A DNA stretch of 64,000 nucleotides. It comes from Naegleria gruberi. Its lineage: Eukaryota. The stretch lies in NCBI GenBank assembly GCA_000004985.1, contig GG738890.1; one strand, given 5' to 3'. Below the pieces are notes generated by a model. It was not told where the DNA came from, did not search any database, and was given only the letters and a program-made list of their open reading frames with translations. Every line of letters starts with the position of its first letter. Position 1 is the stretch's first letter. Shown one piece after another: positions 29,430 through 59,936 of this stretch. The position numbers were made by a program, and so were the translations under genes.

Positions 29430-29514
29430 TGCTCATAGAGGGGGTCGAACCCTCGGCCATCTGCTAACCTCATTTTCTCATAAGACAAATGCTCTACCAC
29501 TGAGCTATATGAGC
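29430..29514 (-). tRNA. tRNA-Ile (anticodon UAU) with ~13-nt intron
   Basis: The reverse complement folds as a cloverleaf. The acceptor stem is GCTCATA/TATGAGC. The D-arm is GCTC-AGTGGTA-GAGC. The anticodon stem is TTTGT/GCAGA (2 G-U pairs) with loop CTTATG... interrupted at 37/38. The T-arm is GAGGG-TTCGACC-CCCTC. Confidence 0.6.
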
Positions 29515-37050: not shown

Positions 37051-38364
37051 TTACTTTTGGTTTGGATTAAAGTGCTTTTGAATGTTAATCCAACACTTAT
37101 AATAATCCTTATCAATATTCATTTCATTCATGGCATATTCTGTTGGATTGATAATGTAGGTAGATTCGAACATGAAGGCCATACTTCCTTCAGAGACACG
37201 TTCTGGTTTCAATTCAGCATTGGATGCCTTTTCAAAGACCTTTTCTTCAGGGCCATGAGGAACCATACAATTGTGAAGAGAACCACCTCCCATAACGAAA
37301 CCTTCTTCTTTAGCTTCATAAACTCCTTCAATTAAACCCATATATTCATTCATGGTATTTCTGTGATAGTATGGTGGACGGAATGAGTGTTCTTGAACTG
37401 ACCATCTATCCTTAAAGATGACAAAGTCCAAAACAGCAACACCCTTCTCAGCTGATTGACAGGTCAAAACTGTGAAAATGGATGGATCCAAGTGGTCATA
37501 TGATACAGAGTTGACAACATTGAATAAATTCAAGTCATATTTGTATGGAGCATAATTTCCGTGCCAAGCAACAACATCAAATGGTGAATAGGTACATTTA
37601 GCAGAAAAGTATTGGTTTTGGAACTTTTGAATAATTTCATATTCAACACCTTGGTCACGATCTTCATAACAAGCAATTGGATAGAGGAAATCTCTTGGGT
37701 TGGCCAAACCATTAGCACCAATTGGTCCCAAATCTGGAATAACAAAGTGTCCAGCATAAACTTCAGACATGTAACCTCTGGCAAAAGTACATGAGCTATC
37801 AGCAAAGTCAACTGTGAATTTAATACCACGTGGAATGACACAAATTTCCTTTGGCTTAACTCTCAATTTACCACATTCAGTAGTAATTAACAATTCTCCC
37901 TTTTCTGGAACAAACAAAAAGTCACCATCTGAATTACACATACAACGATCACCCATTGACTTGGTGAATTGATATTGCAAAATTGAAAATCCAGTTTTCA
38001 ATTGTGGACTTCCCGAACCAGCAACAACTCTCAAACCATCAACAAAATCAATTCCTTCTTCAACTTTCTTTGGTGGCATCCAACGAATTTGTTGTGGTGT
38101 CACTAAACGTCCCAAATCAATCTTGACTGAATTGAGTGGTGAAAATTGTTCATTTCCTTCATAATTTGTAAATGGAAAATGTACAACAGAAGGTCTAATT
38201 CTATAAAACCAAACACGTTGATTACAACTACGTGGTGCAGTAAATGCTGTACCTTGTAATTGTTCAGCATAGAGTCCGTATGGACACTTTTGTGGAGTAT
38301 TCTGTCCTAATGGAAGAGCACCTTCTAATGCTTCGGTACTGAAGGTATTTCCCCAACCACACAT
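37051..38364 (-). CDS. HGD: homogentisate 1,2-dioxygenase
   Basis: GWGNTFSTEALEGALPLGQNTPQKCPYGLYAEQLQGTAFTAPR matches the HGD N-terminus almost residue for residue. 437 aa, the expected length. Conserved His/Glu iron ligands are present. Confidence 0.9.
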   Translation of the reverse strand: MCGWGNTFSTEALEGALPLGQNTPQKCPYGLYAEQLQGTAFTAPRSCNQRVWFYRIRPSVVHFPFTNYEGNEQFSPLNSVKIDLGRLVTPQQIRWMPPKKVEEGIDFVDGLRVVAGSGSPQLKTGFSILQYQFTKSMGDRCMCNSDGDFLFVPEKGELLITTECGKLRVKPKEICVIPRGIKFTVDFADSSCTFARGYMSEVYAGHFVIPDLGPIGANGLANPRDFLYPIACYEDRDQGVEYEIIQKFQNQYFSAKCTYSPFDVVAWHGNYAPYKYDLNLFNVVNSVSYDHLDPSIFTVLTCQSAEKGVAVLDFVIFKDRWSVQEHSFRPPYYHRNTMNEYMGLIEGVYEAKEEGFVMGGGSLHNCMVPHGPEEKVFEKASNAELKPERVSEGSMAFMFESTYIINPTEYAMNEMNIDKDYYKCWINIQKHFNPNQK

Positions 38365-38439
38365 GTATTCTAATCCATCTTGAATACAGGTTGTTTCCTT
38401 TTGATGAAAGGATGGAAATCTAAAGTGAGTCGATGATGA

Positions 38440-52895: not shown

Positions 52896-52968
52896 GCAGC
52901 GATAGATCAGTTGGTTAGATCGTAAGCCTAACACGCTTAAGGTCGCGGGTTCAAGCCCCGCTCGCTGT
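52896..52968 (+). tRNA. tRNA-Val (anticodon AAC)
   Basis: Acceptor stem GCAGCGA/TCGCTGT (G1-U72). D-arm GATC-AGTTGGTTA-GATC. Anticodon stem TAAGC/GCTTA with loop CTAACAC. T-arm GCGGG-TTCAAGC-CCCGC. Internal A and B boxes are present. Confidence 0.85.
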
Positions 52969-53151
52969 ATCCATTTTATTTTCTAATTATTTTTGACGTA
53001 ACCAATTCCAAAGAATTCAACCAACAATTGGACTGCAGTTTCGTCCAATATTTGAATTGTATAACTGAAAGGGTTAATTAGAATTGGTCCCCTTGGTGAT
53101 TATTTCATGTCTTGTGCTCTTGCTTTTTATTGAATTTCTAATTAGAAAGTA

Positions 53152-54693
53152 CTATTCTTTAGCATTTTTCATTCTCATTGATTGCATTGCTTGACTAATC
53201 TCCTTATTGGAAGATTTCAATCTTTCGAATAAATCAGACATGTCCAATAAACAGTGATTTTCCAATTTTTCAAAGAAATTCAAATCCAAACTTTCACTTT
53301 CTTCGATAAGTTTCGAATATTCTACATTCTTCTGTTGAATATAAGGAATATTCAATTCGAAAGGTGAACCAATCGTTAAATAATTCTCAACAATCTTTCT
53401 CGCATGATTTTTCACAACTTGTTGGTCAACTGAACGTTTCTTGAAAATTTCCTTAAATTTCTGAATATCTTTCCAAGACGAAACACTTTCCACACAGAAA
53501 GAACGTCTCGCAAAATCCAAAACAATCTCAAAATATTTTCTATTCAGTAAAATTAATTCAACTTCTGATTTTTCTTCAACTTGAGTTTCGGTTTGATTCG
53601 TTTTCTTTGAATTTAAATATTGAGAAACTGCTCCATACACAGCAGGTCCAAACGTATAAATCAAAACTTCACACAATGAATAAACTGTCAGGGTATATCC
53701 AAAAGGTAGAAAATAATCAACCAATGATGAAATGACATCGATTCCTGTCATTACTCCAAATGAAATAATTCCAACAAGTTGAATCACCAAAAGTATGACA
53801 GTATCTCTCTTGATATTCCATGTATCCTTATCTGAGATCATTGCAAGAATAATGGAAACAAATTCCAATATGAAAAACATTACAAAAACACATGCCAAAA
53901 GGATTACAAAATTTGTGCTCAATGCACAGCCATGTGAAAAGTTAAAGAACCCAGTGTCTGGAATCATGATTTTGGGTGATGAGGGATTGGATTGATACAT
54001 GGTTTCTTCCACAGCTCCCAAAATTATCCATAATAAGATGACGCCAAATGTCAATAGAAAATAACAAATCATCATGAATTTGTAACTTGCCAAGAATGTG
54101 AATATTTTCATTTTCAACTTCTTTTTCCTATCCAATAACATGCTTTCTCCATCCTCCTGTTTGATCGATGTTTGAATTGTTTCCTCCTTCATGGTACTTG
54201 TCAACTCAATTTGACTTGTATTTTGCATGTCGTGCATGGATGACGAAATTTCACCACTACTCAAAGATTTGACATTAAAACTCTTCAACAGATTCAACCT
54301 ATACAATGCAAACAATCGAATACATCTAAAACTGGTCGGCATTGTAAACATTGCAGGGATTAGAATAAAAACTAGAGTAAACAATCCACATGGAAAAATC
54401 TGTCGTCCAATGGCCAACCGAAACAACAATAATCCTGTCAAAGTACAATGAGCACACACTGAAAAAACCAAATAGAATGGGTCTCTTGCCTTTACATAAC
54501 CAGATTTTCTATAAATTATTGTCAAAATTATTCCACTCAACCCGAAAATAAACATGGCAGCAATGAACATTGATGAAGTAATTGTGGTGGAAACAAAGTC
54601 AGGACATAGACCATATTTTTCGGTGGAATTGTTGGAAAGAAGTAGTGGATGACAAGTGGAATTAGTAGAGGAGGTGATGTTTTGTGTGGTCAT
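53152..54693 (-). CDS. seven-transmembrane receptor-like protein with C-terminal RGS domain (7TM-RGS)
   Basis: The N-terminal ~330 aa hold about 7 hydrophobic helices. The C-terminal 120 aa match the RGS-domain consensus (FEIVLDFARRSFCVESVSSWKDIQKFKE...ARKIVENYLTIGSPFELNIP). Confidence 0.65.
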   Translation of the reverse strand: MTTQNITSSTNSTCHPLLLSNNSTEKYGLCPDFVSTTITSSMFIAAMFIFGLSGIILTIIYRKSGYVKARDPFYLVFSVCAHCTLTGLLLFRLAIGRQIFPCGLFTLVFILIPAMFTMPTSFRCIRLFALYRLNLLKSFNVKSLSSGEISSSMHDMQNTSQIELTSTMKEETIQTSIKQEDGESMLLDRKKKLKMKIFTFLASYKFMMICYFLLTFGVILLWIILGAVEETMYQSNPSSPKIMIPDTGFFNFSHGCALSTNFVILLACVFVMFFILEFVSIILAMISDKDTWNIKRDTVILLVIQLVGIISFGVMTGIDVISSLVDYFLPFGYTLTVYSLCEVLIYTFGPAVYGAVSQYLNSKKTNQTETQVEEKSEVELILLNRKYFEIVLDFARRSFCVESVSSWKDIQKFKEIFKKRSVDQQVVKNHARKIVENYLTIGSPFELNIPYIQQKNVEYSKLIEESESLDLNFFEKLENHCLLDMSDLFERLKSSNKEISQAMQSMRMKNAKE

Positions 54694-55028: not shown

Positions 55029-55502
55029 TTGGGTTTTTTCACGTTTCATTTTGCTTTTTTTCAGGCATTTGCTGTTGTGTTTCTTGAAAATAAATATAAA
55101 AAAATGTTTTCAGAAACAATTCAAACTCAATTCTACTCTTTCTTGATTGGTATTCTTTGTTTTGCTATGAGTAGTGTAGCTTCATCAGCACTCTCGAAAG
55201 GCAAAAAGGAAAGTGTTTCCCACCATAATAATTCTCATACGAAACAAGACGATTCAGATTTATGGAATTTTACTGTCTCCCAAAGAAAAAATGAATTGAG
55301 GGAAGAACGTAGAGTGGTCCATAATCAACGTTCAAACAATTATGAAACAGTTCAATCTTTGGAAAAACAATTATCCGAAACTGAAGTTGCCCTTTTTATT
55401 GCTAGAGAACAATTGAGTGCTGCAAACAAGGAAAAGGAAGCGTTGGAAGAACAAGTTATTATTCAAGCTTGTCATATTCAAGACTTGGAGAACAAATTTT
55501 GA
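55029..55502 (+). CDS. small membrane-anchored coiled-coil protein, hypothetical
   Basis: 157-aa ORF with an N-terminal hydrophobic segment and a C-terminal heptad-repeat region (QLSETEVALFIAREQLSAANKEKEALEEQV). Weak support. Confidence 0.3.
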   Translation: MGFFTFHFAFFQAFAVVFLENKYKKMFSETIQTQFYSFLIGILCFAMSSVASSALSKGKKESVSHHNNSHTKQDDSDLWNFTVSQRKNELREERRVVHNQRSNNYETVQSLEKQLSETEVALFIAREQLSAANKEKEALEEQVIIQACHIQDLENKF

Positions 55503-55607: not shown

Positions 55608-55680
55608 GCAGCGATAGATCAGTTGGTTAGATCGTAAGCCTAACACGCTTAAGGTCGCGGGTTCAAGCCCCGCTCGCTGT
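55608..55680 (+). tRNA. tRNA-Val (anticodon AAC), second copy identical to 52896-52968
   Basis: 73/73 nt identical to the first copy. It shares ~35 nt of 5' flank and ~22 nt of 3' flank with it. Confidence 0.85.
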
Positions 55681-55763
55681 ATCCATTTTACATTTCAATT
55701 TTATTGTCCAAGAATTTATTCTAATCTAATGTTCGTAACTTTACAATTTTTTTATTCACAAAT

Positions 55764-58543
55764 CTACAAATCAGCTTGGAATGATAAATCTTCTTCTAAT
55801 GGTTGTTCGACAAAGGCATCATCCTCTCCCATGTCTTCTCCAACTATATCTTCCATAGATAAGTTGAGAGCATCAGAGACAATACCCTTTGACAATGCCA
55901 TTCCCATAGTATTGAGGGAATTGCTATTTTGCCTTACTTCTATCTTTAAGAGCTTGATTGCTTCCTCTTGTTTTCTGTTGGCATCCCTTAATTGAGTGAT
56001 TAACTTTTCCTTTGCAGCATCCTCTGCTTCAAATTGTTGAAGGAGTACCTTGAGATCGTGAATTTCTTGTTGTAATGTCTTTAATTCACAAATCTTCTTC
56101 CAGTACTTGTCAGATCGTTCCTTGGCATCCTTGTACTTGTTCATGTATTTGAGAAGCACTTGGTGAGTTTGTTCCAATTCACTAACTCTTGCTTGTTCAT
56201 CCTTTCTGCTTTGACGTAAATCATTTTCCAATTGGAGAATGTACTTGTTGGTAAACTTAATGTCTTCCTTTCTCACCACTGTTTGAATGATTGTATTTCC
56301 AGATGATTTACCTGTTGAGGAAGGTGGAACTGAAGAAGAGGATCCATTTTCAACCTTATAAGCACTTCCACCAGCCACCGATCCTGCAGCACTGCCTTGA
56401 GTTGTTGGCGTTGACATTATAGTTGATGAGACCACTACTTGTGCCTTTCTTGCCTCATCCAATTCCTTACTGAGCTTTTCAATCTGAAGCTTGAGTTGCT
56501 CATTTTCTTCTCTAAACACTGTGTTGTCATTTTCTGCTTTTTCAAAGCTTTGTTTGAGATCAATATTGCTTTCTGTCAATTTCAAAACTTCCACCTTCAA
56601 TTGATCAGTAGTACCGGCCTTGTCCATCAGCTCTTTCTTTGTATTTTCAATGATGGTAATATGTTCTTGAGCATTATGCAATTTAAGCTTTAACTCTTCA
56701 ATGACAATATCATCTTCCTTTTTGACCTTCTCACAAGCTCTCTTCAATTTGGTTATTCTTGCTTTGTGGGCAGAGTTGAAGAGTTTTGTTGGAGCAATAC
56801 CCTTAACATCAGTTCCACGACCTGGAGAGAAAACAGCCTCTGGATAAACTTGACCCAGTTCAGAGGTATTTTGATTAATACCAAACATTATATCAATCCA
56901 TTTGTGTAAATTTTGGGAAACGTGTTCACACTCCAAGGCATCTCTAGCTTTTTGGATGAAATCTTTAGCACTCTCGGCCCAAGGTGGAAGGCTAACGTCA
57001 CCAGTTCCTCCCAGAGGAAGACTCTTAAAATTAATGAGAACCAATCCTTCACCACTGTACAAATCTGGAATTGTTTCTTTTGGATCACTTCCAGACACTA
57101 TACCCTCCCAACATTTCTCAAGAGACATGAAAAGCTTATTGGTATCAATGAATTTGCCGTCATTAAAATGGAACATGATATCAGGATAACATCTCACCAA
57201 ATAGGAGAGGATATTTTCATAAGTCATGCAGAAATTGTCACATACTGGCCTTTCCAACTTTTTCCTTGCGGCAGAGTTGATGCATCCAATATGTTTGGAC
57301 AAGTCTCTGAATGTGGCAGGGTTTTCAAGATCTAACTTTTCTGATTTCAAATCAGCAAAAATCCAAGGGAAGATTGGATACAAGTAGACATCATTCAATG
57401 TACGCCCAGCGTATCTGTTAAGATTTTGGATATATTCGAAAGTGGAGAGATAACCTGTCACCCATTGTTCTTGATCTCTTTTCACTGATTCATTAATATC
57501 GATCATGCTGTTTTGTCCATAGCTGATCTTTTCAAATGTTGCATCTCTTTCCTCTTCCTTATCAAAGATGAAGAGTGCAGAGGATTCATTATGTAAATGC
57601 ATGACAAATGCTTTGGATCCATTCAAATATTCTGTTTTTACAAGTGCCAATACAGATGATGGGGAAAGTTTTAAAATGTGAGGCTCACCACCAAAACAAA
57701 AGTTTGGTTGGAAGTACACTCTTTTTGAGGAAATTGCAAATTTACCTCTCAACTTTTCAAATGAAGAAATCATGAGAGCTGAGGTAGTGTAAGAAACACT
57801 TTCATCCTCAGTCAGCCATCCAGTATTGAATGGTGTTCTCTTTTCAATCATTTCAACCATGTCTGCAAGTTGTTGATTTCTTGTTTTGTCATCCTTTGTA
57901 AGAATTACTGATTGCATTCTTTCTAACAAATCGTAAACCTTTTGGAAGTTTTCTTTTTGAATACCTAATGTAATTTTTGTAATCTGTGTGATTAATTGAT
58001 GATGAGTTTAAGGATTTTAAAATCATATAAACCAGTAAGAATAGCCATGAACATCATTCCAAAAATAATTGAAAACATACCTTCATCTTACTGTGATCCT
58101 TGCTATCAATTAAACAAACTCTTGCAGTTGAAATCGTCACTGTGGAACATTTCTTTGAAAATCCCTTTGCAGCTGCCTTCTTAATGTTCGAAATATCCTT
58201 AGTCAGAATACGATAAACTGGAAGTGTAAAATCCTCAGGACAGAAGGTTAATGATTTTGTGGCGAGAACAAGATGACCTCTTGGGTGATCATCTTCCTTT
58301 GTATTGACTTGAATATATGTTGAATGACTTGGGAGAATTTCCAATATCTCTTCATCACTCTCCAAGTACATGGATGAAAATCGAACACATGCCGGTTTGG
58401 CCTTAAAGAAATCTATAGGTGATGATTTGTCAGAGTTGTCATTGTTATTATTGTCGTTTGCAGAGTTGTTATTGTAGATGTGAGTGAACAATATAGAATT
58501 TTTTATTATTAGACCATCATAACGGCTAGTACTTACTCAACAT
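55764..58543 (-). CDS. compact PH-BEACH domain protein with C-terminal coiled coil, 3 exons (58537-58543, ~58081-58412, 55764-57983)
   Basis: BEACH core WVTGYLSTFEYIQNLNRYAGRTLNDVYLYPIFPWIFADLKSEKLDLENPATFRDLSKHIG. Upstream PH-like segment HLVLATKSLTFCPED. The first exon is 7 nt (ATGTTGA) followed by GTAAGTAC. Introns are ~124 and ~97 nt, and their phases agree with the track frames. The C-terminus is heptad-repeat coiled coil, with no WD40. Confidence 0.7.
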
Positions 58544-59058
58544 TTTTGTCTCAATAAAAACGTAAGGCTTTTCTAGGGTTGTTTGTCGACAATTTTTTTA
58601 ATGTTGTGATTTTAATAATTTTTTGGAGGGAAACTTCTACAACCCATCAACAAGACTTCTCTCCACATTGTTATTGGCAGTTGAAGATTCCGATGAAGAA
58701 TCCTGTTGTGGCTCTATGAAATCAGTGAACGACTGCATTGAGCCTTATTACCATTTCCCCATGAAACGGCTATGTTTGTACTAGCTAGTTTATAGTGGCA
58801 TTCATTTTCATTATCATTAGGTTTTGTGTAAAATTCAAGGATTTTCTCCTGTATTGTTCCTATTTGTTAGTAGACTAGATCAAATAATTGACAACTTTTT
58901 CTTTACATTAAAATACAAGAAGGATTTATATTATTAAAATTATTAGATGTTTGATTATCAAATATACATTTTGTGGAAAATAATTGTAGAATTACAACTA
59001 TGACAAGTTTGTTGTTGTTGTATGGGATGATGACTTAGATTTTCTCTCGGCTAAACAA

Positions 59059-59604
59059 TTAATAATAGGTTCCCTTCATGTAGTTCTTTGCTTTACGTTT
59101 AAAGTCTTCTGGTTGATCGACGTAGTGCTTGGCAGCATCAACATCGAGAGGATCATCGGGATTTGGTTCGAGGAAGAGGAAGTGAAGACCAGTAAAGATG
59201 GCATTCAAGTTCAAAACTGGCTTCCAGTCAGCTCTCAAAATATTCAAACAAACAGCACCATTTTGATCAATATTTGGGTGCCATACTTTTGTTTTACAAA
59301 TAACCTTTGGAGGCTTGATTGGATATTCGTTTGGAATGTTAATTTCAAATTCGTGTGGGTGAGCCTTCCAAATTCCGTCATCAGGAACAAGGACAAGAGT
59401 CATCTTGTTGAGTTTGTTAGCATCGTCAATTTTTAAATTATCAGACCACTTCTTTTCAAGTTCATCAAGATCTTTTTGAACACGAATTTGATAACCAGTG
59501 CTACGACCACCACCACTGGCAATAATACCTGTTACACCTTGGGTGGCTTGAGGAGTACCTGATTGTTGTTCCTTTTCCTTTTGAATACGGGCTTTGGCAA
59601 ACAT
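59059..59604 (-). CDS. UBE2M: NEDD8-conjugating enzyme UBC12 (E2)
   Basis: IRVQKDLDELEKK...KVWHPNIDQNGAVCLNILRADWKPVLNLNAIFTGLHFLFLEPNPDDPL is nearly collinear with UBC12/UBE2M. The track start at 59670 is a GTG, so I placed the start at the ATG (MFAKARIQKEK), giving 181 aa. Confidence 0.8.
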   Translation of the reverse strand: MFAKARIQKEKEQQSGTPQATQGVTGIIASGGGRSTGYQIRVQKDLDELEKKWSDNLKIDDANKLNKMTLVLVPDDGIWKAHPHEFEINIPNEYPIKPPKVICKTKVWHPNIDQNGAVCLNILRADWKPVLNLNAIFTGLHFLFLEPNPDDPLDVDAAKHYVDQPEDFKRKAKNYMKGTYY

Positions 59605-59936
59605 TCTAGTATTTTTTTTTATAATAAAAATAAATTCCTGTTCTTTTGTTAATAAAATTTTATTCAGCACAAGTTCTTTCTCTTTACAATTCTTTAAAAA
59701 TAGAACAAGGTGTTGTTTTTAAAAACTTGGGATGAACTCTCTTACAATTATTTTCATCATCAGATGACAATAACAGAGGGTGTTATCAAATTATTCTTCT
59801 TCTTAGGGAAGTGCTAACTAACAGTGAGCAGTATTATGAAGAACTTCATCACCTACAATTTGTTAAAATATTTCCTGATCATCAAAAACGTTATCCATGA
59901 CAATGATGATAACTTTTAACATCATCTTGATAACAT

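Follow-up and report, generated by a model that had tools for sequence, protein, structure and literature searches.

BEACH-domain proteins carry a PH-like domain packed directly N-terminal to the BEACH domain and WD40 repeats at the C-terminus, and this PH-BEACH-WD40 cassette has been called conserved across all known members (PMC4489804). The closest described system to the one reported here is FAN/NSMAF. NSMAF, the small member of the family, has a PH/GRAM domain at its N-terminus, followed by PH-BEACH-WD40, and is located on RAB5/RAB14 endosomes; in several BEACH proteins the PH-BEACH unit binds transmembrane cargo by its cytosolic tail (PMC11554844). The PH-BEACH unit of FAN, minus the WD40 repeats, binds DCP1 (PMC4489804).

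A 64,000-nucleotide (nt) stretch of the Naegleria gruberi genome (assembly GCA_000004985.1, contig GG738890.1; hereafter the window) was analysed, with a G+C content of 34%. The minus strand of the window at 55764-58543 contains a gene for an 852-amino-acid (aa) protein, in which a FAN-like PH-BEACH head is followed by a predicted helical tail in the place of the propeller. The sequence evidence indicates that this protein belongs to a small, distinct BEACH subfamily and is not the product of a truncated gene model. In the literature library searched, nothing was found on BEACH proteins together with Naegleria, on the identifiers of this gene, or on a coiled coil replacing WD40 in BEACH proteins.

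A small BEACH subfamily with a helical tail

When 1.84 billion representatives were searched exhaustively with phmmer, using residues 690-852 as the query, 11 matches were obtained in all (E values of 9e-24 to 9e-12). The members from outside Naegleria were P0019 (719 aa), P0020 (929 aa, complete and intronless) and P0021 (604 aa), each a PH_FAN/PH_BEACH/BEACH protein with the same tail and no WD40 repeats. Two further matches, P0018 and P0022, were tail-only fragments. In every match with upstream sequence available, the tail was located behind a BEACH domain, without WD40. The source contigs of the three non-Naegleria members (L004, L005 and L006) were derived from JGI metagenomes 3300062347 and 3300027060 and SRA run SRR28285696, and the next called gene began within approximately 30-60 bp of the gene end; the L004 contig also carries PH_FAN exons upstream. 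As the tail is present behind BEACH in three unrelated contigs, none of which has WD40, a distinct small subfamily is indicated.

Across six proteins, 23 tail positions were invariant. These are N692, Y694, I695, Q697, L698, E699, L702, S705, E709, R712, E715, L716, T719, H720, Y726, Y740, K743, K748, L750, K771, E772, I775 and E795. The tail signature N-[KR]-Y-I-x-Q-L-E...E-L-[ED]-x-T-H...K-Y...K...[IL]-K was found. In a crude neighbour-joining tree of the PH-BEACH region, which has no support values, the six tail proteins formed one clade, apart from the WD40-bearing FAN-like proteins. Word-indexed searches with tail and full-length profiles identified Naegleria proteins and ordinary BEACH proteins alone, and a metagenome pattern search for further family loci matched 600 patterns, none of which was confirmed.

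The tails of P0018 and P0022 gave sub-threshold matches to centrosomin N-terminal motif 1 (E values of 0.003-0.006; 17-18 bits, against a cut-off of 28.5). These matches are probably coiled-coil noise.

Approximately 300 aa of heptad coiled coil had been described behind the BEACH domain in a first-pass annotation, made from the letters of the DNA and a list of open reading frames (ORFs). The helical tail was retained in our analysis, and the continuous heptads were not: the AlphaFold model has helices at residues 525-568, 573-628 and 686-811, with disorder at about 628-689 and 809-852, giving two helical blocks (CC1 and CC2) separated by a disordered linker (Table 1). When the N. gruberi protein was compared with those of N. 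lovaniensis and N. fowleri, CC2 (~125 residues) was the best-conserved part of the protein. At the codon level, 14-16% of the amino acids differed in CC2, compared to 40% in BEACH, and the synonymous change at conserved codons was 44-48% and 57%, respectively. Because the synonymous divergence is similar in the two regions, the constraint on CC2 operates at the level of the protein, not of the DNA, and on this comparison it is stronger than that on the BEACH domain. Neither this conservation nor the presence of the tail in the three unrelated contigs had been noted in the first-pass annotation.

The linker is 38 residues longer in N. gruberi than in the two other species. A 99%-identical ENA fragment (P0001) differs from the window in the linker by a 2-residue indel and two substitutions, a pattern suggesting that polymorphism between alleles or strains is concentrated there. 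A third intron, of phase 1, lies within CC2 between QQE and VHDL in N. lovaniensis and N. fowleri but is missing from N. gruberi; it was gained or lost within the genus Naegleria.

Gene structure and identity

The gene has three exons (Table 1), and the spliced coding sequence of 2559 nt is in frame. The predicted protein was an exact match to N. gruberi XP_002673579.1 by string comparison, and the exon coordinates of the first-pass annotation, which had rebuilt the public gene model independently, were correct. A cluster look-up placed a 99%-identical fragment in a cluster with XP_002673579.1/EFC40835.1/UniProt D2VR53 (NAEGRDRAFT_71465, 852 aa). The BEACH match with an E value of 2e-57, the 739-codon open exon at 34% G+C and the RefSeq identity together place a chance origin far out of consideration, and NAEGRDRAFT_71465 is, from the sequence, a genuine and complete gene that is already annotated in public. 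The gene model and its micro-exon are correct yet are no discovery, being already part of the public annotation. The public labels of these sequences are 'predicted protein' or 'BEACH domain-containing protein'.

The homologue search identified three close relatives: the fragment of 715 aa that is 99% identical, a fragment of 590 aa (51% identical), and an N. lovaniensis protein of 807 aa (55% identical) that spans the whole query. The N. fowleri orthologue is KAF0973340.1 (806 aa). The gene order of Myb, then E2, then BEACH is conserved in the syntenic loci of N. lovaniensis and N. fowleri.

The gene begins with an ATG at 58543-58541, in an exon of 7 nt (ATGTTGA) that is followed by GTAAGTAC. 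It had been proposed that this exon is needed to supply an ATG, since the ORFs of the track start at TTG. Both large ORFs do begin with TTG in the bacterial-code ORF list, and the exon-2 ORF has no in-frame ATG upstream of Met17. N. lovaniensis and N. fowleri have the 7-nt exon at the same position, and the public annotations of all three species use it. The gene starts are ATGCTCA|GTAAGTAGTAG in N. lovaniensis (L001) and ATGCTCA|GTAAGTAGTCG in N. fowleri (L002, L003), and the acceptors in both species restore M-L-N-F-Y-K-A-K. The exon and donor are conserved in the form ATG-YTN-A|GTAAGTA in the three species, with synonymous codons for Leu2 (TTG in N. gruberi, CTC in the other two). The pattern ATGYTNAGTAAGTA occurred once in the 64-kb window, compared to 0.02 occurrences expected, and once each in L001, L002 and L003, always at the homologous position. 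The position of intron 1 is common to N. lovaniensis (136 nt) and N. fowleri (132 nt), with no sequence conservation beyond the donor pattern in the comparison of the Naegleria species, and the position of intron 2 is also the same in both.

A start at Met17 was considered and rejected. The protein is conserved from Phe4 on in the orthologues, and such a start is untenable because residues 4-16 are conserved and the site of Met17 is a leucine in both other species. Distant homologues start with MNLEYYKNRSENSRF and MNTEIYKQRSVTSRF, coded without an intron, and the homologues P0020 and L004 begin with MN.E.YK..S..SRF, leaving no room for a longer N-terminus. These intronless starts place the translation start within a few residues of the conserved YK in all lineages.

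In one N. fowleri model (P0033, CAG4710925.1, 1017 aa), the upstream ubiquitin-conjugating E2 gene is fused to the BEACH gene, the equivalent region of the window being 58543-59670. The fusion is probably a read-through or merging artefact; the fused model still uses the micro-exon junction (...SKMLNFYKAK).

A crude scan of the window for other ATG exons with 3-10 nt before a GTAAGT/GTATGT intron leading into a long open frame gave four candidates, one with the same ATGTTGA exon (Table 1). None of the four products equals a public protein, and the candidate at 37956 may instead be an internal exon.

Absence of the propeller and the downstream end

The first-pass annotation had also reported that the protein lacks WD40 repeats, and this was confirmed both in the protein and downstream of it. 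The 852-aa protein had no Pfam match to WD40, and the post-BEACH region is helical or disordered in the AlphaFold model. A tblastn search with nine BEACH proteins, most of them WD40-bearing, matched nothing past residue 522 near the gene: the matches ended at 56742-56871, seven of the nine at 56742-56769, where 56757 corresponds to residue 522. WD40 exons elsewhere in the window were rejected as well, the sole faint match (E value of 0.94) lying 18 kb away at 37873-38388.

The end of the gene is also conserved. In the alignment, the last residues and stop codon of N. gruberi (...LSFQADL*) correspond to ...LAFQRNL* in N. lovaniensis and N. fowleri, and the 3' end is the same in N. gruberi, N. 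lovaniensis and both N. fowleri annotations.

These observations bear on whether the gene model is truncated or mis-spliced, with WD40 exons beyond the stop codon, or with another start and the 7-nt exon as a gene-finder artefact. The E2-BEACH fusion in N. fowleri demonstrates that models at this locus can err. However, conservation extends to the final heptapeptide and the stop codon, the gene is directly followed by a tRNA and a convergent ORF, the flanks have no similarity to WD40, and the three distant homologues likewise end after the tail. At the 5' end, the micro-exon pattern is conserved well beyond the chance expectation and its junction is kept even in the fused N. fowleri model. An erroneous model is therefore considered very improbable.

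The PH-BEACH head

A BEACH domain with a PH-like domain ahead of it had been predicted from the letters alone, and was supported by Pfam, by the PDB sequence matches and by the predicted fold. Pfam PF02138 (BEACH) matched residues 285-488 at 195 bits (cut-off of 26.8), over profile positions 1-223 of 276. The profile match stops there because the Naegleria BEACH domain is shortened at its C-terminal end. The PF14844 (PH_BEACH) profile matched weakly in N. gruberi; the homologues P0020 and P0021 exceed the Pfam cut-off for it. Furthermore, PF25400 (PH_FAN), which the first-pass annotation had not named, matched residues 12-142 (E value of 4e-8; 33.7 bits, cut-off of 27), and was found also in P0002 and P0020. 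The PDB sequence search identified the PH-BEACH units of neurobeachin and LRBA (E value of 1e-35 over BEACH). There was no alpha-solenoid and no ConA-like region, and 852 aa leave no room for further domains.

The AlphaFold model was built from a 19-sequence alignment and had a mean predicted local distance difference test score (pLDDT) of 74.6 and a predicted template modelling (TM) score of 0.63; an earlier model from a 6-sequence alignment (pLDDT of 47) was discarded. Residues 1-122 are predicted to be beta-rich and are followed by two helices, with a pLDDT of 75-92 in the N-terminal PH domain. A PH fold with seven strands and a C-terminal helix is predicted at residues 176-270, and the BEACH domain extends to about residue 520. 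The top Foldseek matches were 1MI1 and 1T77 (E value of 1e-24; TM score of 0.69-0.73 relative to the target), and the alignment to these 414-residue PH-BEACH crystal structures covers 411-424 columns. The next matches were tandem-PH, GLUE and PH-GRAM folds, which supports the view that the protein has two PH-like domains. The Naegleria BEACH domain retains the residues that are invariant in a set of 19 diverse BEACH proteins, as well as the terminal motif G508-I-A-P-T-K-L-F-N-S-A-H519-K-A-R522.

Comparison with known BEACH proteins

The protein had been described as unusually small, on the yardstick of 2000-4000 aa for BEACH proteins. That yardstick does not apply, as the N-terminus is of the FAN/NSMAF type and NSMAF is itself recognised as small among the BEACH proteins (PMC11554844). 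For a member of the FAN class the length is ordinary, and the unusual feature is the missing propeller. The domain content places the 852-aa protein in the FAN/NSMAF-like ('small') branch of the BEACH-domain proteins. The BEACH domain and the PH-like domain packed directly N-terminal to it were both found, and the C-terminal WD40 repeats expected of a BEACH-domain-containing protein were not. Similarly, of the features of FAN/NSMAF, PF25400 without an alpha-solenoid or ConA-like domain was present, and WD40 after BEACH was absent.

Like FAN/NSMAF, the N. gruberi protein has fewer than 1000 aa and lacks the alpha-solenoid and the ConA-like domain (PMC11554844), and its best matches outside the subfamily (P0004, P0005, P0006 and P0012) all carry PF25400. 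However, FAN ends in WD40 repeats, whereas the N. gruberi protein ends in approximately 230 helical residues that carry a conserved signature, and the crude PH-BEACH tree groups it with the coiled-coil-tailed proteins and not with the WD40-bearing FAN-like ones. A link to the TNF receptor, an animal protein, or to sphingomyelinase would not be expected in an amoeboflagellate.

The predicted PH and BEACH domains superpose on the PH-BEACH units of neurobeachin and LRBA (1MI1, 1T77) with a TM score of ~0.7. Unlike the Naegleria protein, neurobeachin and LRBA are ~2900 aa long and contain an alpha-solenoid, a WD40 propeller and a ConA-like domain, and the Naegleria BEACH domain is shorter by ~20 residues before the terminal G-x-x-P...H-x-x-R motif. 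A functional analogy may also be drawn with golgins and Rab-binding coiled coils, which likewise combine a head for membrane or cargo binding with long helices, a flexible linker and, close to the C-terminus, a short conserved segment for the binding of a partner; however, neither sequence nor profile comparison shows significant similarity to these proteins.

Features of the locus and its neighbourhood

Table 1. Coordinates of the BEACH gene, the encoded domains and other features. Positions refer to the window unless a related locus is named; identities are those of N. gruberi to N. lovaniensis / N. fowleri.
Feature	Position	Strand	Description	Identity
Exon 1	58537..58543	-	7 nt, ATGTTGA; Met-Leu and first base of Asn3
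Intron 1	58413..58536	-	124 nt, GTAAGT...TATAG, phase 1
Exon 2	58081..58412	-	332 nt, residues 3-113; most of the FAN-type N-terminal PH domain
Intron 2	57984..58080	-	97 nt, GTATGT...CACAG, phase 0
Exon 3	55764..57983	-	2220 nt, continuous ORF; residues 114-852 and TAG stop at 55766-55764
N-terminal FAN/NSMAF-type PH (GRAM-like), PH_FAN	57897..58386	-	Residues 12-142, span includes intron 2; Pfam and model	61% / 61%
PH of PH-BEACH unit, PH_BEACH	57513..57797	-	Residues 176-270; weak PF14844, model, Foldseek	54% / 54%
BEACH	56757..57470	-	Residues 285-522; C-terminal shortening specific to Naegleria	60% / 60%
CC1, first helical block	56439..56750	-	Residues 525-628; moderately conserved (40%)	40% / 41%
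Ser/Gly/Thr-rich disordered linker	56268..56438	-	Residues 629-685; pLDDT ~30; length varies between species/alleles	22% / 23%, 38-residue indel
CC2, second helical block	55890..56267	-	Residues 686-811; signature tail (NKYILQLE...ELEQTH...KYW.KICELK...)	86% / 84%
Acidic disordered C-terminal end	55767..55889	-	Residues 812-852; pLDDT <50; last heptapeptide conserved	41% / 49%
Third intron of N. lovaniensis and N. fowleri	L001 7911-7970, L002 9763-9830		Corresponds to window ~56066, codon 753
tRNA-Val(AAC)	55608-55681	+	Downstream, 83 nt past the BEACH stop codon
157-aa convergent ORF, unannotated	55029-55502	+	No Pfam match
513-aa multi-pass membrane protein	53152-54693	-	C-terminal RGS domain, E value 1.4e-5
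Micro-exon candidates	3702 (-), 1541 (-), 37956 (-), 40835 (+)		One with the same ATGTTGA exon

The tRNA-Val(AAC) gene downstream of the BEACH gene is one of an identical pair, the other copy being at 52896-52969 (+), 2.6 kb away. The 16-nt upstream flanks of the two are nearly identical, and the pair brackets the RGS/membrane gene and the small ORF. A tRNA was not found in the syntenic loci of N. lovaniensis and N. fowleri. A tRNA-Ile(TAT) at 29430-29514 (-) is 85 nt long, which exceeds the standard tRNA length, and may contain an intron.

Proposed role

On balance, we favour a coiled-coil peripheral-membrane sorting adaptor or tether, encoded by a genuine FAN-like gene in which helix stands in the place of the propeller; a role as a membrane sorting adaptor or tether is likely. 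The N-terminal PH domain would put the protein on a membrane, and the PH-BEACH unit, by analogy with human BEACH proteins, would bind membrane proteins through their cytosolic tails, or else another partner. The helices are predicted to pair as a coiled coil, probably as a homodimer, and some oligomer is expected because a 125-residue helix cannot be stable alone. CC2 would then recruit one specific conserved partner, replacing the partner-binding role of the WD40 propeller.

Several results weigh against this proposal. The members of the subfamily outside Naegleria are known solely from metagenome and read-archive contigs. The PF14844 match at residues 184-266 scored 19.8 bits, below the cut-off of 27.5, and the BEACH domain of the three Naegleria proteins lacks ~15-20 residues near its C-terminus (56757-56850, residues ~490-522) that canonical BEACH proteins and the remaining members of the subfamily possess. 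The tail had no significant match in Pfam (E values up to 10) or among PDB sequences, where the best E value was 0.5 or worse and the Rab-binding domain of MICAL1 matched with an E value of 5. A crude Fourier test for the 3.5-residue heptad periodicity was weak (z <=2.6), so that the helicity of the tail is taken from the AlphaFold model, and dimerisation is deduced solely from the isolated 125-residue helix in a model of the monomer.

The degree of conservation of CC2 could also be explained if the function of the WD40 repeats were supplied in trans, with CC2 pairing with the coiled coil of a separate, possibly WD40/propeller, protein to form a hetero-oligomeric PH-BEACH-propeller and not a homodimer. 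Conservation is far above the need of a simple dimerisation zipper, many of the invariant CC2 residues are polar or aromatic (N692, Y694, Q697, S705, T719, H720, Y726 and Y740), and the literature otherwise describes the cassette as shared by every known BEACH protein (PMC4489804). However, the exhaustive tail search matched BEACH proteins and their fragments alone, with no second family and no candidate partner, and this arrangement is regarded as unlikely.

Similarly, the strong conservation of the tail, together with the weak centrosomin motif 1 matches described above and a weak Leu_zip match of the N. gruberi tail, could point to a mainly cytoskeletal or centrosomal coiled-coil scaffold, acting for example in the amoeba-to-flagellate transition. 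The PH-BEACH head would then be secondary or degenerating, as its shortened BEACH domain and weak PH_BEACH match might suggest. Yet the tail matches are all below the Pfam cut-offs, and the BEACH domain keeps the residues invariant across diverse BEACH proteins and is 60% identical among the Naegleria species, hence under selection. A scaffold of this kind therefore seems improbable, and the sorting adaptor or tether is preferred.

A more specific form of the adaptor proposal is that CC2 is a dedicated dock for a motor, a motor adaptor or a small GTPase, coupling the recognition of cargo by the BEACH region to transport or tethering. We regard this as speculative, with a low probability of being correct. 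If docking through CC2 were true, the subfamily would be natural proof that PH-BEACH works without a propeller, against the view that the PH-BEACH-WD40 cassette is obligatory.

The sequences have been public since the release of the N. gruberi genome; the main interest lies in the replacement of the propeller and in a helix of unusually high conservation. Their reach is limited to Naegleria and a few protists, with no bearing on disease. What the BEACH domain does at the molecular level is still poorly understood, and this intron-poor subfamily, under purifying selection, keeps PH-BEACH and swaps the propeller for a strongly constrained helix. With 800-930 aa, where a typical human BEACH protein has 2700-3800 aa, it offers a compact natural test case for PH-BEACH alone and for the contribution of a C-terminal module, and the helix of ~125 residues gives a concrete handle toward a binding partner.

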